This document shows positions 5,882-62,277 of a stretch of DNA of 64,000 bases, piece by piece. Both the position numbers and the translations under genes were made by a program. Source of the stretch: Planctomycetota bacterium (GTDB lineage: Bacteria > Planctomycetota > SZUA-567 > H5-PLA8); NCBI GenBank assembly GCA_045863855.1, contig BTVV01000013.1:9294-73293 (forward strand), read 5' to 3'. Each line of letters begins with the position of its first letter. The stretch's first letter is position 1. Below the pieces are notes generated by a model, which was given only the letters and a program-made list of their open reading frames with translations, made no database searches and was not told the origin of the DNA.

Positions 5882-8800
5882 ATGGCTCGAACACCTCGCC
5901 CCAAAAAGAAGGGGGCCGTAGCGCCCCTGCTGAACCACCCCGCCGAGATTTTTGCTTCCGCGCCTTTGCCCGGGCGGGGCATTCGACCGATTCGCCGGCT
6001 CATGGTGGCCAATCGCAGCGAGATCGCCATCCGTGTCTTCCGCGCGTGCACCGAACTGGGCATAGCGACCGTCGGCATTTACAGCCAGGAAGACAAGCTC
6101 GCGTTGCACCGCTACAAATGCGACGAAGCGTACCTGATCGGCGAAGGCAAGGGGCCGGTTGCGGCCTATTTGGGCATGGAGGAAATCATCCAGCTTGCCC
6201 GCGAAAAGCAAGTCGACGCCATACATCCCGGCTACGGGTTCCTGAGCGAGAACGCGGACTTCGCGGAGAAGGTGATCGCAGCGGGGCTGATCTGGGTGGG
6301 CCCCAGTCCGTCCGTAATGCGCAAAGTTTCGGACAAGGTGGCCGCACGCGAGCTGGCGCAGAAGCTGAAGCTGCCGGTAATTCCCGGCACCGACGGACCC
6401 GTGGGGAGCCTGAACGAAGCGCTGAAGTTCGCTCAATCGGCCGGTTTTCCGGTCATGGTCAAGGCCAGTCACGGCGGCGGCGGACGCGGGATCCGGCTGG
6501 CACGGAGTGCCGCGGAATTGAAGCAACTTCTGCCGCTGGCGCAGCGTGAAGCGAAGCAGGCTTTCGGCAGCGACGAGTGCTACATCGAGAAGGCGCTGGT
6601 CGGTCCGAAGCACCTGGAAGTGCAGATCCTGGGCGATACGCACGGGAACGTCGTTCACCTGTTCGAACGCGATTGTTCGGTGCAGCGCCGCCACCAGAAG
6701 GTGATCGAGATGGCGCCCAGCCTGGTGCTGGACGAGAATGCGCGCCGCGATTTGTGCGGTATGGCCGTGAAATTCGCTCGCGCCGCGGGCTACCAGAACG
6801 CCGGCACCGTCGAATTTCTGCGCGACCGCGACGGAAGCGTGTACCTGATCGAGATGAACGCGCGCATTCAGGTTGAGCACACGGTGACCGAGGAGGTCAC
6901 GGGGATCGATCTGGTGCAGGCGCAGATCCGCGTGGCGCAGGGCTACCGGTTGAGTGACCCGGAGACGCGCGTACCGCCGCAGGACCGGATCGAGCACACC
7001 GGGTACGCGATCCAGTGCCGCATCACGACGGAAGATCCGCGCAAAGGCTTTGCGCCCGACTACGGCCGCATCGGCACCTATCGGTCGGCGGCGGGCTTCG
7101 GGCTCCGGCTCGACGGGGGCACCGCATTCGCCGGGGCGATGATCACGCCCTATTACGATTCGCTGCTGGTGAAAGTGACCGCATACGGGCGCGACTTTGC
7201 CGCTGCCGCCGCGCGGATGTACCGCGGCCTGAGCGAGTTCCGCATCCGCGGCGTGAACACCAACATGCCGTTCCTGCAGAACGTGCTGCGCCACCGTGCG
7301 TTTCTCGAAGGGCGCTGCGACGTGCTCTTCATCGACGAGCACCCGGAACTGCTTCGCTTCCATGAGTCCCGCGACCGCGCGAACAAGCTGCTCGCGTTCC
7401 TCGCCGACATCACCGTGAACGGGAACCCGATCGTCGGTGAAGGGCAGAAAGCGCCGGCTGAGGCCAAGCCGCCCGTGCCGCCGCATCCACAACTGCCGCT
7501 CTCCACCGGGCGCTTATCGGGCGTCCCAGAGGGAACCCGGCAGATTCTGGACCGCGAGGGACCCGACGGGCTGGTGAAGTGGATTCTGCGCCAGAAAAAG
7601 CTGCTGGTCACCGACACGACCTTCCGCGATGCGCATCAGTCGCTGCTGGCGACCCGAATGCGCAGCCACGATCTGCTGCAGATTGCCCCGTATTACGCGG
7701 CGCATGCCGGCGACCTCTTCAGCCTCGAAATGTGGGGCGGGGCGACCTTCGATTCGGCGATGCGCTTCCTCAATGAAGATCCCTGGGAACGTCTGGTCGA
7801 ATTGCGCCGTAAGGTTCCGAACATCCTGTTCCAGATGCTCGTGCGCGGCAGTTCCGCGGTAGGCTACACGAACTATCCCGATAACGTGGTCAAGGCGTTC
7901 GTGAAAGAATCCGCGCAAGCCGGCGTCGATATCTTCCGCATCTTCGACAGCCTTAACTGGCTGCCGGGTATGGAAGTGGCGATCGAAGCCGCGCGCGACA
8001 GCGGGCGCATCTGCGAGGCGGCGATCTGCTACACGGGCGATCTGAACGATCCGAGCAGGTCGAAGTACGGCTTGAAATATTACGTGAGCCTCGCGAAGGA
8101 ACTGGTCAAGCGCGGCACGCAGATTCTCGGCATCAAGGACATGGCCGGCCTGTGCAAGCCTTACGCGGCGCACGCGCTGGTCAAGGCGCTGCGCAACGAA
8201 GTCGGCGTACCGATTCACTTTCACACGCACGACACTTGCGGCGGACAGGCGGCGACGCTGCTAAAGGCCGCCGAGGCCGGCGTGCATATTGCCGACATGG
8301 CCATCGCGAGCATGAGCGGCCTGACGAGCCAGCCGAATCTGAACAGCATGGTTGCCGTGCTCAAGGATTCTCCGCGCGCAACGGGACTCGATCCTTCGGC
8401 GCTCAATCGGATCTCCGAATACTTCGAGCAGGTACGGAAGTTCTATTACCCCTTCGAGAGCGGGATGCAGGCCGGTACCGCCGAGGTGTGGGATCACGAA
8501 ATGCCCGGGGGCCAGTACACGAACCTGCAGGTTCAGGCGAAATCGCTGGGACTCGAGAACCGCTGGGACGAGGTCAAGAAGCAATACCGCGCCGTGAACT
8601 TTCTGTTCGGCGACATTGTGAAAGTAACGCCCAGCAGCAAAATCGTCGGCGACATGGCGCTGTATCTGGTCTCGAACAAACTCACCGCGGAAGACGTCTG
8701 GACCAAGGGCAAGCACCTCAGCTTTCCGGAATCGGTGATCCAGTTTTTCGAAGGGCACATCGGGTTTCCGCCGGGCGGATTCGATAAGAAGCTCCAGCAG

Positions 8801-38278: not shown

Positions 38279-39172
38279 TCAGGTGGGCCAGATTTTGGTC
38301 ACGCGCCAGTCGCTGGGCGCCAGTCCCGTCCACTTCTTGAACTGCGCGCTGAAGTGGTACGGGTCGCCGAATCCGGTGCGCTGCGCGATTTCCTTCACGC
38401 TCAAGCGTTCCTGCCCGGCCAGAAGCGCGCACGCGCGTTCCATGCGCTTGCGCAGCAGCAGCGTCTTTGGCGCGACGCCCATGTAACGCCGGAACTGATG
38501 CGCGAAGTGGCTGGGCGACAGATTCGCGCGCCGCGCCAGCGCTTCCACGTCCAGCGCCGGATCGTCCAGGCCGCGGTCGAGCGTCTCCAGGACCGGCCAC
38601 ATCCAGCCCGGGCCGGAGCGCTTGGGATCGAAGCTCAGCCGCCGGGCTTGCGCCGCCGCTTCGAGCACCCGTGCGAGGAGTTGCACCAGCAGCGCTTTTG
38701 CGCGCAGCAGATCGAACGGATCGGCCTGCTTGCCGCCGCGGCCGCGCGCGACCAGTTCCTCGAAGACGCCTTGAATTTCCGCGCGCCGCGGCAGCGCCAC
38801 GGCCAGCGGCAAGTCCAGCATGCGCAGCGGATCGAAGCCGCCGCGCCCCACCTGGAAGTGCGCGAAAAGGAGTTCCACTTCGCCTTCGCCCATACTGCGC
38901 TCGTGAAACGGCGCGCCCGGCGGCAGCAGCGCCATCGTTCCCGTCCGCGCCTTCACGGTCTTGTGCGCGAAGGTGTATTCCAGGCCGCCGCGCAGAATGA
39001 AATGGAAATCGTAATCGTCGAAGGCCGGCCGGCGCACGTCGCGCCCGGCGCGGTGCGTGGAATGCCCGAGGCCGTGGGAGAGTTCCACCCGCGCATGCGC
39101 GAGTTCCTCGCAAAGCCAGCGAGCGGGGTAGGGCGAGATACTGGCCGGAGCGGCGTCTGGAGGTCGAGGCAT
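38279..39172 (-). CDS. AraC family transcriptional regulator (cupin + HTH)
   Basis: C-terminal HTH VKEIAQRTGFGDPYHFSAQFKK. Confidence 0.8.
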   Translation of the reverse strand: MPRPPDAAPASISPYPARWLCEELAHARVELSHGLGHSTHRAGRDVRRPAFDDYDFHFILRGGLEYTFAHKTVKARTGTMALLPPGAPFHERSMGEGEVELLFAHFQVGRGGFDPLRMLDLPLAVALPRRAEIQGVFEELVARGRGGKQADPFDLLRAKALLVQLLARVLEAAAQARRLSFDPKRSGPGWMWPVLETLDRGLDDPALDVEALARRANLSPSHFAHQFRRYMGVAPKTLLLRKRMERACALLAGQERLSVKEIAQRTGFGDPYHFSAQFKKWTGLAPSDWRVTKIWPT

Positions 39173-39196
39173 GCCGCGATTATACGCGGCGCCCCA

Positions 39197-40447
39197 CTAC
39201 TTCTTCACGTTCTTGTAGCGGTAGACCAGCATGGTGGCTTTATTGTGATTGCTGTCGCCGGCCCGGTAGAAGAAATGGGCGTTTAGCGCGGCATCGTAAA
39301 AGCCATGCCAAAGCAGGTGCTTCAAGTTTTCGCCCTTGCCTGAAATGTCCGGGGTCGAGTCGCCCATATCGGTCCAGCGGTTGGCTTCCGGATCGTACAC
39401 GGCGATCGGACCGTTGCTCTGATGCCACAGGACGACTCCATTGGCGGCATCGAAGTAAAGCTGCGCATTGTTGGTGGCGCCCAGTTGCTCCGGCTGGCCT
39501 TCGGCCTTGATTTCCGTCCACGTTCCGAGCTTCACGTCGTAGCAGGCAAAGCTATTGCCTTTGGCCACGTAGACGCGTTCGCGCTTCGAGTCGAAGCAGC
39601 CGTTGGAATCGATTTTGGATATCGAAGCAGGCACTTTGGCGCCCGCCGTCCATGTGTTGGTGGCGTAGTCGTAGAACCAAGTGGTGCCTTGGTGCGTGTA
39701 CAGCGTCTTCTTGAGGGAAGGGATGTACTCTGCGACGCCTTCGAAACGCCCGCCAGGGCCGGCTCCTTCTACGTACGTGCGCTCCCATTTATTCGCCGCC
39801 ACGTTCCAGAGCAGCGGATGCTTGGTCAACGGAAGGACGGCGCCGACGTTTCCGTAAGTCTGCTTCTCCTTGGGAACATCCAGCCAATCCCAGCGCTGCG
39901 GTACGGCTTTGCCCCACCAAGGGCACTGCGTCCACATGATGTGGTAGAGCTTCAAGTCCGTGTTGTAAGTGGTGTTGTTGTAGGCGTGCGAGAGGTACGA
40001 GATGGGAATGTCCTCGCCGTCCTCGGTGACTTCGAAGCCGTGCTTATCCAGCTTGAGTTTGGTTTCCTTATTCGCGCCGGGGTACAAGCAGATCCACTTG
40101 TGCGCGAGGGCGTCGTAAAACCACAGGTCGTCCATGTAGCGGCCGTCGGATTTCACGGCTCCGTGAACGCCGGTGCCGCAGAAGAACGCGCCGCCTAAGT
40201 CCGGCGCCGCGGCCATCTTCGAACACCAGGCTCGCCCGCGAGCGATGCCTTCTTGACCCCAGCGGGTATCGGCTTCGGGGCAGCCCAGGTTCAGCCATGC
40301 GTTGTCGCCCAGGGCTCTGATCTTTTCGATGTGCGGACCGGGTTTGGACGGCAACTCGGCCAAGGGGTTGGTGGAACTGCTTTCGCCGGCGGAGAGCAGA
40401 CTCGCCAGGCACCACGCCGCCAGCAACGCCATCGGAATCGATTTCAT
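39197..40447 (-). CDS. secreted Kelch/beta-propeller repeat protein
   Basis: Signal peptide. Repeated W/Y-rich blades (WFYD, WTxx). Confidence 0.5.
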   Translation of the reverse strand: MKSIPMALLAAWCLASLLSAGESSSTNPLAELPSKPGPHIEKIRALGDNAWLNLGCPEADTRWGQEGIARGRAWCSKMAAAPDLGGAFFCGTGVHGAVKSDGRYMDDLWFYDALAHKWICLYPGANKETKLKLDKHGFEVTEDGEDIPISYLSHAYNNTTYNTDLKLYHIMWTQCPWWGKAVPQRWDWLDVPKEKQTYGNVGAVLPLTKHPLLWNVAANKWERTYVEGAGPGGRFEGVAEYIPSLKKTLYTHQGTTWFYDYATNTWTAGAKVPASISKIDSNGCFDSKRERVYVAKGNSFACYDVKLGTWTEIKAEGQPEQLGATNNAQLYFDAANGVVLWHQSNGPIAVYDPEANRWTDMGDSTPDISGKGENLKHLLWHGFYDAALNAHFFYRAGDSNHNKATMLVYRYKNVKK

Positions 40448-41682
40448 ACGTGCTCCTTTGCTTTCACGTTTTCGGCAAGTCCTTCGGTATGCGCAAGATA
40501 CCGAGTCGGCACGCCCACGCGGACCGTAGGCCGGTGCGGTTGCTGCAAGCGCGCGAGCGCCAAGGCCGCGCCGATGCGGCCGAGTTCCACGCCGTCGATG
40601 CGGATCGCGTGGGCGGCGCCGCGCGGGAGCCGTTCGGCGGCGCCGGCGGCTTCCAGGCTAAGTCCATGATCGGCGCAGGCTTGTTGCAGCGCCTCGGCTT
40701 GATCCAGGTTGAAGCAGATTAACGCTTCGGGGCGTTCGGTATCCGGTTGTTGCGCCCAGCTTTGCGCCAAGTTCGCGGCTTCGCGAGCGCCGACATCAAG
40801 CCGATGAATCCAATCTTCGCGCACGGGCAGGTTGAGTTCGTCCATCGCGACGCGGTAGGCGTGCTGGCGGCGGACGCTGTCGGGCTCGACGCGCGTATGG
40901 GTGCGGACAAATGCGTTTAGTGCCGCGCCGTTCAGGGTTTCGGAAGGCGCCGGCGCTCCGATGACGCCACCCACGTAGTGGATGCGCCGCAAGCCTTGTG
41001 CTGCGAACGCTTGCACCGCCGCGCGATAGCCGTCCAGCGGATCGACGCAAACCTGATCGGCGCGACCGGCGCAGCGCGCGTCGTCGAAGTCCAGCAGGAC
41101 CGTGGGAAGCTTAAGCTCCAGCAGGCTTTCCAAGTACGCCTGCTCGACGACGTTGACCGTGATCAGGGCGTCGAAGCCTCCCGCGCGCACGGCCTCCAGC
41201 GGCGGATGCCGCGGATGCACCGGCAACGCTTCGCCCAAGGCTTCAAGCGTAAGCCCGCGCGCCGGAGCGTCCCAGACGGCGCGCGTAAACGCGGCTTCGT
41301 TCGGAACGCTCCAACTGGGAGCAACATTCGACAGGTTCCAGGCTTCCAGGACGCCACGCGTAAGCGCGCCCCACCAGGATTGAACTAAGCGCTCGGGGCG
41401 CACCGAGACGGGCCAGAGCAGCCCGACGCGCAGATGCCGCCCGGGCAGCAGCGGCGGCGCTTGGCGGTCGGCGACGTACGTTCCGCTGCCGCGACGCCGG
41501 ACAATCAAGCCCTCGGCGACCAACTCACGCAGCGCGCGGCTTACCGTCAGGGCGTTAACGTGAAGGCTGCGCGCGAGTTCCAACTCGGTCGGCAGGCGGC
41601 TTCCGGCGGGGTAGGCCGTACCCTTAAGGAGGCGCCGGAGATGCTCCAGGACGCGGGCGTGTTTGGGGGCATGGGTATCCAT
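40444..41682 (-). CDS. GntR-type HTH + LacI/periplasmic-binding-like sugar-sensing transcriptional regulator
   Basis: N-terminal GntR HTH (LPTELELARSLHVNALTVSRALRELVAEGLI). The stop overlaps the ATG of the Kelch gene (ATGA). Confidence 0.7.
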   Translation of the reverse strand: MDTHAPKHARVLEHLRRLLKGTAYPAGSRLPTELELARSLHVNALTVSRALRELVAEGLIVRRRGSGTYVADRQAPPLLPGRHLRVGLLWPVSVRPERLVQSWWGALTRGVLEAWNLSNVAPSWSVPNEAAFTRAVWDAPARGLTLEALGEALPVHPRHPPLEAVRAGGFDALITVNVVEQAYLESLLELKLPTVLLDFDDARCAGRADQVCVDPLDGYRAAVQAFAAQGLRRIHYVGGVIGAPAPSETLNGAALNAFVRTHTRVEPDSVRRQHAYRVAMDELNLPVREDWIHRLDVGAREAANLAQSWAQQPDTERPEALICFNLDQAEALQQACADHGLSLEAAGAAERLPRGAAHAIRIDGVELGRIGAALALARLQQPHRPTVRVGVPTRYLAHTEGLAENVKAKEHV

Positions 41683-41889
41683 ACCTCCCTGCGTACACCG
41701 CTCAAAAGCACAGTAATGTAATTATTATAAACATTACTAAAATTGAATCCGAAAGTCGGCGGCGTACGCGCAAGATATGATCGAATTATCCACCATATGA
41801 TCGATGAGCCTCCTTACCATGGGTGCTTCCGAGGGGTATGCTGGTCTATCGATGATCGATTCGTCGGATTACCCGGAGCACGCGCGTCC

Positions 41890-43566: not shown

Positions 43567-43798
43567 GGAGTTAAGCGAAGGCGCGCAGACGGGAGCGTCC
43601 GCGGTTCGCGCAGCCGAACGCCGGGCTGCAATTAACACTTGTATCCGCCTCGCTTTAAGCTATCTTCCCCGCTTCGTTTTGAGCACGTCCCCGCGGCCCC
43701 TGTGAGTGGCCATATGGACTGCTGCTCGGGGCTAAGGGCCGGCGCCGCGCGAGTTTAGCTTTCGCCGCCGCGATCCCACGGATGCAAGGAGTCAGACG

Positions 43799-44476
43799 AT
43801 GTCTTCCGCCACAGGTATTCTCGGCCGCAAGGTCGGCATGACTCAGGTTTTCAACGAAGCGGGCTTGCGCGTGGGCGTGACGGTCCTGGAAGTCGGCCCG
43901 TGCAAGGTCTTGCAGGTCAAGGACGTCGAGAACGACGGCTACTTTGCGCTGCAGTTGGGCTTCGGCGAGAAGAAGGAAAAGAACACGTCGAAGCCGTTGC
44001 AGGGGCATTTCGCGAAGGCCGGCGCAAAGCCGGCTCCGTACGTCGGCGAGATTCGTCTCGCGGCGGCGGCCGAAGACAAGCAGGGCGAAGAGGTTACGGT
44101 TTCGATTTTCGAAGGCGTGCAGAAGGTGGACGTGACGGGCACGAGCAAGGGCAAGGGCTTCGCCGGCACGATCAAGCGTTACAACTTCCAGCGGCAGCGT
44201 GCGACGCACGGTAACAGCAAGAACCACCGGACGTTAGGTTCGCTGGGCCGGCACATGTCGATCAACAAGGGCGTGCCGAAGGGCAAGAAGATGCCCGGGC
44301 ACATGGGTAACGCGAAGGTGACGGTGCAAGGCTTGAAGGTCGTTAAGATCGATCCGGACAACCACTTACTGCTGATCGAAGGCGCGGTTCCCGGCCCGAA
44401 CGGGGGCTTCGTCGTGGTGAACAAGTCGATCCAAGAGAAGGTGCGGAAGGACAAGGAAAAGCGCCCGAAGTACTAA
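43799..44476 (+). CDS. rplC: 50S ribosomal protein L3
   Basis: AAGGAG ribosome-binding site. MSSATGILGRKVGMTQVF ... is the universal L3 signature. No rpsJ upstream or rplD downstream in this window. Confidence 0.9.
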   Translation: MSSATGILGRKVGMTQVFNEAGLRVGVTVLEVGPCKVLQVKDVENDGYFALQLGFGEKKEKNTSKPLQGHFAKAGAKPAPYVGEIRLAAAAEDKQGEEVTVSIFEGVQKVDVTGTSKGKGFAGTIKRYNFQRQRATHGNSKNHRTLGSLGRHMSINKGVPKGKKMPGHMGNAKVTVQGLKVVKIDPDNHLLLIEGAVPGPNGGFVVVNKSIQEKVRKDKEKRPKY

Positions 44477-44506
44477 GCCAGGAATTTCCGAAGATTCTGC
44501 TCGAAC

Positions 44507-44537
44507 GGGCCGGAAGAAATTCCGGCCCGTTTTTTTA
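44507..44537 (+). terminator. rho-independent terminator of rplC
   Basis: GGGCCGGAAGAAATTCCGGCCC hairpin followed by TTTTTTT. Confidence 0.7.
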
Positions 44538-44633
44538 TGCTTAAACCGCACGAGTGCTGCTCGAAGTGAGTTACGCAAAGTGTATGGCCGAGGAAGCTAT
44601 ACGAGGCGCTATATTTGCGCCACGTCGTGCGCT

Positions 44634-44703
44634 AAGTGTAAAAGTGTAAAGCGTAAGTGTAAAGTGTAAGGCTAACTTTACACTTAGGTTTACACTTTTT
44701 TTT
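44634..44703 (+). repeat. tandem/inverted AGTGTAAA octamer repeats forming long imperfect hairpin followed by T9
   Basis: Four direct copies of (A)GTGTAAAG are followed by two inverted copies TTTACACT and then TTTTTTTTT. It forms a very AT-rich patch in GC-rich DNA. Confidence 0.55.
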
Positions 44704-44784
44704 GACGCGGTTCGAGCGTGACAAAAGGCGCGAACCGGGTCGAATGGGTTCGAAAAAAGGCGCGTCCTTCCGTGACCTTCCGCG

Positions 44785-45372
44785 TCAGGGGTGCGGGGGA
44801 GGGGGTTGGGGCGCGTCGGCTCGAATGACGACCCAACGGGCGATGCGCGGGCAGCACAGAAAGACCAGCAGCAGGAGGAAGAGCTGGCCATACGGCGTAA
44901 AAAGGAAGAGCCAGAGCGGGTACCACCAGAAGACCGCATGCGCATCCACGCCTATATCCAAGTAATCGACGCCACCGCGTCGATTCAGGTACTGCCATTT
45001 CAGGTTCAACAGCATGACCCACGAGCCTCCGAAGGCGGCGGGGATTAAAACGCAAAGCGTAATAAGACGCCGGCTTGAGTCCGCCGTTCGATTACGCGCC
45101 AATAAGCGCAGGCCGATCAGCCACCAGATCGCGAGCAGCGTCCAAATAATCAGCAGTCCGATGAATAGCGGAGTATGGGCGTTCCGATCGATCAGTGGCC
45201 AAGCAAATAACCATGCGGCCGCGAACATTTCGACGGTCAATCCGTAGAATTCGGTGACGCGAAACTGGACCTTGGCCTGAGGGGCCACAGGCTTTAGCCA
45301 CATCGGCGCGAGCACGGCCGCCCCACAGACATGCGCGAGGGCCAAGGTCCACAAGAAGTCAAGGATGGGCAT
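44785..45372 (-). CDS. integral membrane protein, unknown function
   Basis: Five to six TM helices. ATG 45372 (MPILDFLW) is preferred over the longer track ORF. Confidence 0.5.
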   Translation of the reverse strand: MPILDFLWTLALAHVCGAAVLAPMWLKPVAPQAKVQFRVTEFYGLTVEMFAAAWLFAWPLIDRNAHTPLFIGLLIIWTLLAIWWLIGLRLLARNRTADSSRRLITLCVLIPAAFGGSWVMLLNLKWQYLNRRGGVDYLDIGVDAHAVFWWYPLWLFLFTPYGQLFLLLLVFLCCPRIARWVVIRADAPQPPPPHP

Positions 45373-45484
45373 TCCGGAGCTCCGCGAACTTCGCCGGTGC
45401 GGTCTTGTGAAGGCCGTGCAAACCCATAATATAGCGGTAGGTACATGCAGGGGAAATCCCACTACGGGGCGGCCGATTGAGCAT

Positions 45485-46246
45485 ATGGATGGAATCGTGG
45501 CGCAAAGCGATAGGCTTGGTTTCCGTCTGCTTCGAACTTTCGCATTTAGCGAATGTACGGCCTTGGTTTTTCCTGCCTTAGCATTTTCGGTTTTGGTTCT
45601 CTGTTCCTGTTCTAGTCCTAGTCAGAGGGAGCGAGAAAAATCCGCACCGAAGGACCCCCAAGCGAAGCCCATTACAGATCAGGTAGAGGATGGGGGTGAA
45701 TCTTCATTTTCAGGTGAGATCATTACGCCTGACTTGATGCAGTCGGTTCCTCCGGAAAAGCGGCATCCATTTCTTATGCCTGGCGAAGTGTATAGCGTGC
45801 CGCGCGTATTAAGCACCCCCAGCGGCTCGGTTTTAGAATTAGCCGAAAAAGGAATTAAGATCGTTAAGGGCCATTGGGAGATTAAAGGGGACTTTATTCG
45901 AGGCTCGCCCTTAGAAGGACAACCGCAGGCCATTTTGGAGTTCGATGTCGAAGATGCCTACTATGTCGGGATTTGGGCGAGAGGCGAGGCGGCGGGAGTG
46001 GGCTATTCTGTGGGCAAAAATACTATCTACGGCATTCGTCCGAACAGTACCTTAAAGTCTGTGGGACTCTATTTCCCTATTAATCGAAGTCCCGAACTCT
46101 GGTTGGACGAGAAGCGCCATCAATCCGAGTTGCCCGACTCGGATACTGTCCTTTCAGAAATTAAAGAGGGCAAGTGTTGGTTGATCGTAGAGCAGGGCAC
46201 AATCGAGTTTATGAATTTTAGCATCTATATGCGTTCGAATAATTAG
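45485..46246 (+). CDS. lipoprotein, unknown function
   Basis: Signal peptide with lipobox LVLC-S. Low-GC codon usage. No known domain. Confidence 0.5.
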   Translation: MDGIVAQSDRLGFRLLRTFAFSECTALVFPALAFSVLVLCSCSSPSQREREKSAPKDPQAKPITDQVEDGGESSFSGEIITPDLMQSVPPEKRHPFLMPGEVYSVPRVLSTPSGSVLELAEKGIKIVKGHWEIKGDFIRGSPLEGQPQAILEFDVEDAYYVGIWARGEAAGVGYSVGKNTIYGIRPNSTLKSVGLYFPINRSPELWLDEKRHQSELPDSDTVLSEIKEGKCWLIVEQGTIEFMNFSIYMRSNN

Positions 46247-46281
46247 TAGCATTGGGGTCGGGTGTGGTAGTTGGACTTGGA

Positions 46282-47088
46282 ATGGATCCATCTATGGGGA
46301 AGCACGTCAACTCGCTGCAGGAAGCAGCGAAATATTCGAATGCGCTATTTTACTTGGATTGCGAGAACGAAATACCGGTTACAAGCCCAGTACGCTTGGT
46401 TCGATGTACGGATGATGCGTTGCAGCGGTTGAGCGATGATTTGGGTTTTTACGGACTTCTTACGGATGCCACTCAGTGCGTCTTTTTTGATATTACACCA
46501 AGCGATCCACCTTGGACGAAAGCGCAGCTTAGCGGGGATATCTGGGTTGCTCCTAAATACGAGGCACTTCTGGGCGCTGCGATTCGGCAGGTGCTTATCG
46601 GCAAGGCCGAAGACCTATACAATAGTGCCTTTGACCCAACGAAACCCCTTTACCCCCTTGAGTCGCGCAAAGTCGGTGCTACGCCCATGTCCCTCGCAGC
46701 GGAATCAAACGATTGGGATGGAACGTTTGTTCGAATGCTCCGACTGAACCCCAACATCAATGCCTGTAACTCGAATGGTGATACTCCACTTCATGGCGCC
46801 GCGAGAGGCGGCCACGCCGCTTTCGTTGAGCGATTAATCGCATTACGAGCTATGGTCAATGCCAAAGGCGCGCATGAAAGAACGCCTCTCCACCTTGCCA
46901 TCCTGAATCAGATGAACAAATATCCTCCGTCCACAGACGCCGCAAAGCTTTTGATTCTGAACCATGCCGATGTGAATGCAAAGGATGAGAAAGGCTTAAC
47001 TCCTTTGGACTACCTATTGCGGTGGTGTCCCAACGATCTTGAGTTGAAGGAAATGCTTCTGTCGAGAGGCGCAGTAAGAGGAGGCTAG
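46282..47088 (+). CDS. ankyrin-repeat protein with unknown N-terminal domain
   Basis: Two to three C-terminal ANK repeats (GDTPLHGAARGGHAAFVERLI..., ERTPLHLAI..., KGLTPLDYLL). An alternative TTG start lies at 46252. Confidence 0.65.
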   Translation: MDPSMGKHVNSLQEAAKYSNALFYLDCENEIPVTSPVRLVRCTDDALQRLSDDLGFYGLLTDATQCVFFDITPSDPPWTKAQLSGDIWVAPKYEALLGAAIRQVLIGKAEDLYNSAFDPTKPLYPLESRKVGATPMSLAAESNDWDGTFVRMLRLNPNINACNSNGDTPLHGAARGGHAAFVERLIALRAMVNAKGAHERTPLHLAILNQMNKYPPSTDAAKLLILNHADVNAKDEKGLTPLDYLLRWCPNDLELKEMLLSRGAVRGG

Positions 47089-47190
47089 TAGGCCGGTGGC
47101 ACGGGCAGTCCCTCCCACCGATCTTGAACGCGTCGCCCTTTCTGGATTTGGTGCCACGGGATGCGGACGTTCGCAACCCGTGCACACCAC
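47089..47190. repeat. REP-like imperfect palindromes (GGTGGCACGGG / GGTGCCACGGG ... CCCGTGCACACC)
   Basis: Two related GC-rich palindromic units lie between the ankyrin gene and the transposase. A third related unit (CGTGCCACCAGCC) overlaps the transposase stop at ~47905-47918. Confidence 0.3.
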
Positions 47191-47238
47191 CGTACGTCTC
47201 TCGATGAACGTCACGGACTCCTATAGACTGCGCGGCGC

Positions 47239-47901
47239 ATGGACGGTCGGCCCCCGCATCGCAAGCGCGTCCGCACGTACAACGTGCCGGGGCACGCGCA
47301 ATTTCTCACCTTCTCCTGTTACCGGCGCATGCCTCTATTAAGTAACGACACATGGCGTGGTTGGTTGGGCGAAGGCGTCGCGCGCGCATGCGCTTCATTC
47401 GACTTCGCGCTGTGGGCGTATGACTTCATACCGGAGCACGTTCACCTCCTGGTGAAGCCGCGCGGGAGCGTCTACGACGTGAGCGCCTTTCGCCGGAGTC
47501 TCAAGCAGGGCGTTTCCAAACGCATCGTGAACGCGCTTAAAGAGAAGAACGCGCCGGTGCTCGCGAAACTCCGCGTCCAAGAGCGTCCGAGGAAATGGTG
47601 CTACCGCTTCTGGCAGGAAGGGCCGGGGCACGACAAGAACATCTGGAGCCTGGCCAAGGTGATCGAGAAGGCGGTATACTGCCATCGGAATCCGGTGGAT
47701 CGCAAACTCGTGCGTTCGCCGGAACAGTGGCGTTGGTCGAGTTTTCGCTGGCTGGAGTTGGGTAACAAGGAACAAGAATCGCTGGCGGTGGACGCTTGGG
47801 ACGAGCGGCTCCGCGACGATCCGGACGGTGAGGCACTGGCTGCTTACACCCGCAGCCAGTGGCACCAGTTCCTAAAGGGTACGCGGAAAGATGAGGCGTG
47901 A
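47239..47901 (+). mobile_element. IS200/IS605-like Y1 (HUH) tyrosine transposase, REP-associated (RAYT-like) type
   Basis: HUH motif EHVHLLV. Catalytic Tyr context AVYCHRNPV. C-terminal W.WSS motif (WRWSSFRW). 220 aa. Confidence 0.7.
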
Positions 47902-47979
47902 CCGTGCCACCAGCCATGCGCATGAAGGTGCGCTTAAGTACGAAGAGCAAATTCTCCTGATACTAAAGGGGCAATAGCG

Positions 47980-48315
47980 ATGGATGCGGAAGAAGCCGTC
48001 AAGGCACTCTGCCATTTAAGAAGGCGTGGAGGCATTACGGAGGATGGTTTCATTTTGGCATTGATAGCCAACGCGTCTGAATATTTTCCGGCTGACATTT
48101 GGCGTTCAATAAAAGATGACGACAAGGCGGAAGTTAAGCGCCATGTGTTCTCGATAAGGAATGGGGCTTCGGTATTTGGAGGGATTGACCGCAAGGCGGT
48201 ACTGGAAGGCGTAAAAGCATTTGTTGATTTCTTTGAAAAGGACCCAGCCGCCGTCCTCCGCAAAAACTCATCGCGTGGCGGATCAGGGGATGAAGGAACC
48301 GTCGATAAAAAGTAG
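47980..48315 (+). CDS. small hypothetical protein (111 aa)
   Basis: ATG start. Low-GC codon usage like the neighbouring island genes. No known family. Confidence 0.35.
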   Translation: MDAEEAVKALCHLRRRGGITEDGFILALIANASEYFPADIWRSIKDDDKAEVKRHVFSIRNGASVFGGIDRKAVLEGVKAFVDFFEKDPAAVLRKNSSRGGSGDEGTVDKK

Positions 48316-48808
48316 AAGAGCAGGGCTGAAGTAGAGTCGGAATTGGCGGCTTCAACGCAGATCCGTGCAAACGATTGCAATCCCTTCCGCCAAGTAGCCG
48401 CCAAAGTTTTGCCATCGAAACCGTAGATCAAGAGATCGAGAAGGCTTGCAACCTACCACCCTTGGTTTCCTAAACCGGAGGTCGCCCTCTGCTTGCTCCG
48501 AAGGGCGGGCTCTGCGTTGGCCTCGCCCGCCGTATGGTCTCGATGCGACGCCCTGCGGGACGCCTTGCCGTTTCAAAAGCGCCTGGCGACGCGGTGAGCA
48601 CGCTTTTCAGCGAGCTGCCAGGGCGCGGGATCGATCGTTCCGGCTACGCATCTTTACGAAAGAGTGCGCGTTCTTGTGAGGGCAAAAAATTGGGTTAGGC
48701 TGAGCGGTGCATGGACGGCAAAACGCACCGGCAGCATGCGCGCACGTGCCAGCGGGATCGGCGGGCGGACGGCGTTTTGAACCGGATGCCTTGGACTTCC
48801 GCCTGCGC

Positions 48809-50613: not shown

Positions 50614-50637
50614 ACCTTTCTTAAAAAGTCAGGCTCT

Positions 50638-62250: not shown

Positions 62251-62277
62251 GGGGGCTCGCGCCCGCCTCTTTTTTTA
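62251..62277 (+). terminator. terminator-like hairpin + T-run 20 nt upstream of the 62298 gene
   Basis: GGGGGCTCGCGCCCGCC followed by TCTTTTTTT on the plus strand. Confidence 0.3.

Follow-up and report, generated by a model that had tools for sequence, protein, structure and literature searches.

A repeat-built hairpin with a T-tract behind the rplC terminator of a planctomycete, and its in-register rewriting in a close relative

The rplC locus and its non-coding module

The DNA analysed here is a single stretch of 64,000 nucleotides (hereafter, the window), and its L3 protein marks the source as an uncultured member of the Planctomycetota, the homologues being named 50S ribosomal protein L3 of Planctomycetota. 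Behind rplC and its terminator lies a non-coding module of about 250 nt (44539-44790), the core of which is an array of short repeats. The features of the locus are given below; L123 is a close relative and L001 an assembly contig, both described in the next section.

43799-44476, + strand: rplC (ribosomal protein L3; Pfam PF00297 Ribosomal_L3), monocistronic, the gene upstream of the array
44503-44536, + strand: first rplC terminator, canonical and intrinsic (terminator scan), identical in L123
44547-44631, + strand: module 1, a predicted four-way junction (RNAalifold, window versus L123)
44634-44697, + strand: A+U-rich hairpin built of repeats, with four direct and two inverted units of 9 nt each
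44696-44703, + strand: T8 tract directly after the 3′ arm of the hairpin, a U-tail in + strand RNA
44703-44787, + strand: module 2 (85 nt), with an 8-bp inverted repeat, TGACGCGG/CCGCGTCA, at its two ends, and containing GGTTCGA-like copies
44785-45462, − strand: convergent gene for a predicted multi-pass membrane protein (ORF and translation; called as a gene in L001), its stop codon abutting module 2
44791-48666, no strand: strain-variable island (homology to L123 ends at 44790 and resumes at ~48667)
47239-47901, + strand: RAYT-like Y1 (HUH) transposase gene (NCBIfam NF047646, E = 1.3e-17, below the curated cutoff; Pfam Y1_Tnp)

The first rplC terminator has a stem (44503-44532) of 13 bp with 8 G-C pairs, followed by T7. 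In this clade rplC stands alone, with rplD, rplW and rplB not downstream of it. Its promoter and 5′ leader (window 43630-43798) are ~99% identical to those of L123, and the spacer just 5′ of the leader (43577-43630) is only ~50-60% identical; the conserved stretch is a candidate L3 leader or regulatory structure. Further upstream, an A+T-rich palindrome, AGTAATGTAATTATTATAAACATTACT, lies at 41700-41740 between a gene for a GntR/periplasmic-binding-type regulator (40444-41682, − strand) and two divergent PhyH dioxygenase genes; it recurs in conserved form in L123, and the regulator probably uses it as its operator. The cumulative GC skew has its minimum at ~39000-41000 and then rises steadily to 64 kb, through − strand genes as well. 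An origin of replication was rejected: the skew minimum at 39-41 kb is not accompanied by a DnaA-box cluster, the six 1-mismatch matches to TTATCCACA-like boxes (3.6 expected) being scattered, with none in the array. A dif site was likewise rejected, since the XerD arm is absent on direct reading and the skew minimum points to the origin side rather than the terminus.

The array consists of four direct and two inverted units, as an earlier note on this DNA had described. The unit AAGTGTAAA occurs exactly at 44634, 44642 and 44655 of the + strand, a fourth direct unit, AAGTGTAAG, lies at 44662, and the inverted units, TTTACACTT (the reverse complement), occupy 44677-44685 and 44689-44697; a seventh, degenerate unit (AAGTGTAtgg) is found at 44578. 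The T-run behind them has eight Ts, not the nine that had been counted. No further exact copy of the unit occurs elsewhere in the 64-kb window. With up to one mismatch allowed there are 11 matches, compared with 3.0 ± 1.7 in shuffled sequences, a count that none of 100 shuffles attains, and 6 of these matches fall inside the array's 64 nt. A literature search with the motif strings returned unrelated primer and vector sequences only. At a GC content of ~32%, in a genome of 63%, the array is one of just four stretches in the window with GC ≤36% over 60 nt, and the A+T-rich character ascribed to the element behind the rplC terminator is thus real. T-runs of at least seven occur three times on the + strand of the window: at the rplC terminator, at the array and at 62270. 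The first two, 160 nt apart, each lie directly behind a strong hairpin; at 62270 a short spacer separates the T-run from the G+C-rich hairpin before it.

RNA of 44625-44706 is predicted to fold into a hairpin of ~23 bp with a U-tail (−29.1 kcal/mol, z = −4.25; 0 of 200 shuffles as good). The array hairpin itself (−27 to −29 kcal/mol) has an A+U-rich stem of ~21-23 bp that is weak at the base, a loop of 9 nt and an end at 44697-44698, overlapping the start of the T8. A simple terminator scanner did not call it, presumably because a 9-nt loop and an A+U-rich stem lie outside the scanner's limits. Between the rplC terminator and the array, module 1 has a predicted closing stem of six pairs (44547-44552 with 44626-44631) and hairpins at 44555-44577, 44581-44603 and 44605-44621. 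In the RNAalifold consensus, which like the other consensus folds here rests on the two sequences of the window and L123, every pair of module 1 is kept, each substitution being either wobble-compatible or confined to a loop or unpaired position. On the + strand its consensus energy of −32.5 kcal/mol compares with −19.0 ± 3.4 for column shuffles (z = −4.0); on the − strand the energy is −22.9. For the whole of 44547-44703 it is −51.1 kcal/mol (+) and −39.4 (−), with column shuffles at −20.8 ± 3.7, and the better-folding + strand is also the one on which U follows the hairpin.

Module 2 folds barely better than its shuffles (z about −2), and its last 30 nt are identical in L123. GGTTCGA, said earlier to be present three times, is exact twice (44709 and 44747), the third being the near copy GGGTCGA at 44737; the accompanying inverted repeat, GCGGTTCG/CGAACCGG, is present with 7 of 8 positions matching. 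A further word, GCTCGAA/TTCGAGC, noticed post hoc, occurs four times in ~330 nt (44499-44825), against 0.36 per kb window-wide; these sites lie around the rplC terminator, both modules and the end of the convergent gene, and are only partly conserved in L123. Two candidate identities for this DNA were discarded. A tRNA or tmRNA fragment, to which the cloverleaf-like module 1 and GGTTCGA might point, was not found by ARAGORN; no T-loop sequence is present either, and the motifs have not been kept in L123. A small ORF at 44554-44649 shows six non-synonymous changes and one synonymous change against L123, where its stop codon is lost.

Relatives and the strain-variable island

A protein database search with L3 returned the window type, the L123 type (99% identity) and next an 80% relative that lacks the module. 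L123 is the sole close relative found: its aligned DNA blocks are 90-93% identical to the window (overall about 92%), and its upstream genes and intergenic module are as in the window. Three more distant relatives, L129, L130 and L132 (L3 identity 80% and 70%), have a single hairpin+T terminator after rplC and no module; convergent genes and an ECF sigma factor gene lie directly behind that terminator. Given that the distant relatives lack the module and that gene content at the junction varies, the module is a recent, lineage-specific addition. One of these relatives, L130, carries at 7970-8060 a perfect 26-nt inverted repeat, (TAAAACG)3 … (CGTTTTA)3, around a 36-nt G+C-rich spacer, between an ECF sigma factor gene and a GFO/IDH/MocA gene. 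Like the array, it joins tandem words with their inverse; it is absent from L132.

The module lies at the left edge of the strain-variable island, so that the island edge suspected in the earlier note is borne out. In the window the island holds, beginning with the membrane protein gene, a 293-aa ORF, an ankyrin-repeat protein, the RAYT-like gene and a 165-aa ORF. The membrane protein has no family match in Pfam, NCBIfam and PADLOC scans, and the ankyrin protein has a weak match to PADLOC PDC-M72A. The island of L123 (10992-14284) holds a GmrSD-type type IV restriction (defence) gene and RAYT gene remnants, and in L129 an alpha/beta-hydrolase gene lies at the rplC junction. Judged by these contents, the junction is a hot spot of gene-cargo turnover in this lineage. 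No Rep, Par, integrase or DNA-binding partner was found in the ORFs of the window and L123 islands scanned with Pfam, NCBIfam or PADLOC, or among the precomputed Pfam calls for L123. The att-like boundary that had been proposed as an alternative does not hold up, as the scanned ORFs include no integrase gene and the units are not conserved in L123. An integrase att site was rejected because the scanned island ORFs showed no integrase domain and no array or repeat was seen at the right homology boundary at ~48666 (50614-50637 was read in the window only). An integron attC site was rejected as well: GGCTAAC and GTTAGCC are each one base off R″ RYYYAAC and R′ GTTRRRY, and there is no IntI.

A k-mer assembly contig (L001, an identical Logan contig) passes through the array unbroken; the window's own genome is represented among the Logan contigs by two short, identical contigs only. 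For the L123-type strain, several independent assemblies among the Logan contigs (L124-L128) stop inside the rplC terminator or the array, and the last base of L127 differs from L123. These ends could reflect a loss of coverage at the hairpins or a population polymorphism at the site.

At least 120 loci that share this architecture of words came up in a genome-wide pattern scan. These are heterogeneous: 35 are one orthologous Bacteroidales regulatory region, and the others are MAG-specific dispersed hairpins, phage arrays or singletons. A universal GTGTAA element was rejected on account of this heterogeneity and of the MAG-specific hairpins sharing no neighbouring genes. Viral contigs contain the real word at 48 loci; two control words matched to it in composition reached 10 and 11. 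As many of the 48 lie in the same phage families, the enrichment is modest, and as the control words also reach ~10 viral loci each, the architecture is generic and the word modestly enriched. No plasmid or phage similarity of the element was found, and its conserved flank words are absent from the viral contigs. The 35 Bacteroidales genomes (L004, L008, L020, L022, L041, L059, L074 and ~28 more) share an orthologous intergenic TGTAAAG array with one inverted copy and a T-run, adjoining TolC/HlyD-type efflux and two-component system genes. Its unit is conserved across genera, a picture that would fit a transcription-factor binding array. Dispersed intergenic hairpins of GTGTAA/GTGCAA hexamers are spread over several contigs within single MAGs: the Nitrospinota MAG JACQEW01 (L057, L058, L064, L066, L077, L105) and the MAG CAWGIE01 (L007, L019, L078, L113). 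With no neighbouring genes in common, they look like undescribed REP/MITE-like families.

The nearness of a RAYT-like gene raised the possibility that the array is a REP-, REPIN- or MITE-like dispersed palindrome, or a hairpin substrate of that HUH transposase, on the model of the IS200 left-end terminator hairpin. Several observations point this way. In L123 the RAYT remnant begins ~75 nt after module 2, from which we infer an ancestral order of module then RAYT, and the module may once have directly preceded the transposase gene; GTGTAA-type unit hairpins form the dispersed families just described; and REPs are typically found downstream of genes and between convergent genes (PMC3733652). 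Against it, the array is single-copy in the 64 kb and at the related loci (none in L129, L130 or L132), L001 runs straight through it, it lacks a GTAG tag, and the RAYT family has different hairpins of its own. These are G+C-rich and REP-like, have the form GGTGC-CACTGGCTGC-loop-GCAGCCAGTG and lie upstream of the gene in L202 (~250-300), L203 (~2900-2960) and, in degenerate form, the window, where an inverted copy (…GCACC) sits inside the 3′ end of the RAYT-like gene. In the window they lie at 47150-47186 and 47834-47866 and are not linked to the array. L202 and L203 are RAYT homologues, 67% identical, and are without the A+T-rich array. The GGTGC-tagged hairpins thus appear to be the REP-like pair of a planctomycete RAYT, and the array was rejected as the REP of this gene; we give the explanation as a dispersed palindrome or transposase substrate, taken as a whole, very little probability.

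Two alleles of the array and a proposed role

The arrays of the window and L123 align without gaps and differ at 18 of 71 positions. Every unit is changed in register and without indels, from TGTAAAG in the window to TGTATAC in L123, and the inverted units from CTTTACA to GTATACA, one L123 copy being degenerate (GTATCCA). The TGTA cores keep identical relative positions (window 44637, 44645, 44658 and 44665; L123 10837, 10845, 10858 and 10865), and a tail of TTCTTTTT occupies in L123 the place of the window's T8. In the hairpin consensus 21 of 21 pairs are kept in L123 and 0 are broken. Four pairs have changed on both sides (AU<->UA twice, GC<->CG twice), all of them transversion swaps. The best fold leaves two units unpaired in each strain (window U1 and U4; L123 U2 and U4), and these changed in concert with the others. 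The long hairpin with a U-tail envisaged in the earlier note therefore not only folds well but is retained in L123, with compensatory changes. That note had made its reading depend on conservation of the repeats in relatives; their sequence is not conserved, but their architecture is, in L123. We conclude that a concerted, structure-preserving rewriting of six units is documented, in only two alleles.

To put this pattern in numbers, 18 random substitutions were placed on one allele in 5000 simulated trials. Starting from the window allele, at least 5 copies of a 7-mer were kept in 2 of the 5000 trials, and a fold as stable as that of L123 was obtained in 1.8% of them; starting from the L123 allele, the fold energy of the window was reached in 0 of 5000. 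Conservation of the array between the two strains is 0.75 and that of its flanks 0.81-0.85, ordinary values against a range of 0.42-0.94 for other intergenic DNA. Hence, what is exceptional in the array is the pattern of change and not its amount. Inversion of the palindrome was rejected as the source of the swaps, since the direct alignment (72%) beats any reverse-complement alignment.

A coordinated change of six units might be expected of a DNA binding-site array, of the ribbon-helix-helix heptad-operator, iteron or arm-site type, if the specificity of its protein were strain-dependent and the units had co-evolved with it. Such an array would consist of near-identical 9-mers, direct and inverted at fixed spacing, as these six are; it would explain why the units dispensable to the hairpin changed in register with the rest while the TGTA core was kept in 4 of 4 direct units. 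It would also sit well beside a hot spot of cargo exchange, and the similar GTGTAA arrays of phage contigs and the conserved Bacteroidales region look operator-like. However, the scanned island ORFs yielded no partner of such a type, whether a DNA-binding, Rep, Par, integrase or transposase protein, the orthologous flanks make a swap of the whole element unlikely, one inverted unit of L123 is degenerate, and the T-tract and RNA-type fold are left unexplained. Units that differ between genomes 92% identical speak for a structural role rather than for a sequence conserved as a protein-binding site. We consider a binding-site array distinctly improbable, and the iterons suggested in the earlier note are not supported: the scanned island ORFs include no Rep/Par gene, and the units all differ in L123, the opposite of what iterons would show. 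There is only a slim chance that the six units are the specificity determinants of a recognition array for a putative sequence-specific factor, either protein or RNA, marking the rplC-proximal boundary of the cargo hot spot. The change from TGTAAAG to TGTATAC would then record a shift of specificity by co-evolution, much as in immunity or incompatibility switching, and the cargo would be a defence gene in L123 versus ankyrin and membrane proteins in the window. To our knowledge, no allele-specific recognition-array system of this kind has been described in Planctomycetota.

We tentatively favour a role for the hairpin in RNA. The array would form the stem of a long A+U-rich hairpin with a U-tract, closing a structured non-coding stretch of ~160 nt behind the rplC terminator, and would act as a second, atypical intrinsic terminator or as a hairpin protecting a 3′ end. 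It would stop transcripts that have passed the first terminator or, in some strains, a short RNA begun just upstream, and the convergent variable island would thereby be insulated from the highly expressed rplC. The repeated words are not a conserved recognition sequence; it is geometry and pairing that are kept. The units may be held alike by template switching or gene conversion between direct and inverted copies, and such copying within the hairpin would explain why all six changed together in L123 and would yield the transversion swaps observed, with pairing maintained by selection or by the mechanism itself. In bacteria, clustered mutations that match one arm to the other are well known to arise by template switching in quasipalindromes (PMC7202029).

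Several observations weigh against a terminator. With its 13 bp, 8 G-C pairs and T7, the first terminator seems strong enough that little read-through should reach the second; the stem of the array hairpin is A+U-rich beside the U-tract; and between the two hairpins the window and L123 share no conserved promoter. The unpaired units changed in concert with the paired ones, so selection on pairing alone is not a sufficient explanation. Together, the strong first terminator, the want of a conserved promoter, the A+U-rich stem base and the changed unpaired units keep our preference tentative.

Because the compensatory changes are all transversion swaps, copying between arms at the DNA level could have made them without selection on RNA. 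The array might be a functionless, self-maintaining quasi-palindromic repeat, the remnant of DNA inserted behind rplC, with direct and inverted units kept alike by replication slippage and template switching and with an incidental T-run and fold. Arm copying predicts just such swap-type changes, and it would reach the unpaired units too. A possible donor in cis exists in the arms of hairpin 2 of module 1, which resemble the L123 unit; the flanks are conserved to a degree ordinary for intergenic DNA; and repeat-built hairpins of the same architecture are widespread, as the viral counts for the real and control words illustrate. Slippage should, however, alter the number or spacing of units, and the two alleles are equal in length and unit positions. 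Moreover, the T-tract beside the hairpin is kept, and the adjoining module 1 is significantly structured on the same strand. We regard a functionless repeat as unlikely.

The earlier note had also proposed a small RNA of ~160 nt. What stands of this proposal is that 44547-44703 folds well beyond its shuffles and better on the + strand, an anatomy, ending in a hairpin and U-tail, that is typical of sRNAs. In an independent sRNA gene the transcript would start at its own promoter and end at the U-tract, the repeat hairpin serving as terminator or functional domain. L123 has a sigma-70-like site, TTGTCA-16-TATATT (10/12), ~20 nt upstream of the array. Its −10 is conserved in the window, but the −35 reads GCCGAG there, and on the + strand of the window the scanner found nothing resembling a promoter ahead of the array. 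A covariance-model scan with Rfam 15, a check that the note had named, gave zero matches at gathering score in the whole window and no family at a meaningful E-value; below threshold, only miRNA-precursor (generic hairpin) models lie over the array, others lying over the 3′ end of rplC and its terminator. In addition, the repeated motifs that would serve as seeds differ between the strains, whereas nearby candidate target regions are ~99% conserved. An sRNA gene is therefore highly doubtful in our view. Overall, what the earlier note had observed is confirmed, and its interpretation is supported in part.

If the terminator or 3′-end hairpin that we favour is real, its function would be an ordinary one, the stopping or capping of transcripts behind a ribosomal protein gene. 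Unusual would be the means, an A+T-rich stem made from one repeated word in a G+C-rich planctomycete in which hairpin+T terminators are rare. The array is a natural example of concerted, structure-preserving evolution, with six units rewritten alike at 92% genome identity and an unchanged geometry, and the pair of alleles may offer a test case for template-switch homogenisation versus selection on RNA pairing. The array would gain importance only if its units turn out to act as recognition sites specific to each allele.

Comparison with known systems

Ribbon-helix-helix operator arrays, such as the omega heptads of pSM19035 and the MetJ metboxes, and plasmid iterons are made of contiguous 7-9-bp units in direct or inverted orientation. 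The array is like them in having six 9-nt units, direct and inverted, where at least three short units would be expected. It is unlike them in that no cognate protein gene was found in the scanned island ORFs, the units are not conserved in close strains, and a T-tract and an RNA-type fold are present. We do not place it among them, as no partner gene was found and the units are not conserved.

The left end of IS200 reportedly carries a terminator hairpin, a finding attributed to Beuzon, Marques and Casadesus in 1999. Like it, the array would be a terminator hairpin ahead of a Y1 transposase gene, stopping transcription that runs in from outside, if the inferred ancestral order is right. The array differs from IS200 in that there are no IS200-like boundaries, the RAYT homologues are without such a hairpin, and the RAYT-like gene is now 2.5 kb away.

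REPs measure 20-40 bp and carry a GTAG or CGTC tag at one end (PMC3733652; for REPs and RAYTs, PMC3116915 and PMC5581495). The array resembles REP, REPIN and BIME elements as an extragenic hairpin between convergent genes, 3′ of a coding region and with a RAYT-like gene near. It is longer than a REP or REPIN, is untagged, and is single-copy as far as seen (the 64-kb window, L129, L130 and L132). No GTAG is present at the array, and a CGTC 8 nt upstream occurs in the window only, being absent in L123. Given that there is no tag, a different hairpin at the RAYT genes and no sign of multiple copies in the sequences covered (the contig is unbroken), membership of the REP/REPIN class is not supported.

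The closest parallel to the changes themselves is found in quasipalindrome template-switch hot spots (PMC7202029), in which clustered substitutions likewise keep or raise the complementarity of the arms of an imperfect inverted repeat. The difference is one of extent, since the six units of the array were all changed completely and in register as natural strains diverged, and not by one mutation event in the laboratory.

Intrinsic terminators, among them the tandem terminators found behind highly expressed genes, resemble the array in having a stem-loop and then directly a U-tract, both in the sense direction of the gene upstream. The array is the second hairpin+T site, 160 nt after the first, and its hairpin is retained through compensatory change. 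The typical intrinsic terminator has a short, G+C-rich stem of ~5-14 bp and a loop of 3-8 nt, whereas the stem of the array is ~21-23 bp, A+U-rich and built of repeats, with a 9-nt loop. On the strength of these likenesses and differences in sequence and predicted fold, the element is probably best filed as an unusual, repeat-built variant of the intrinsic terminator or extragenic hairpin.
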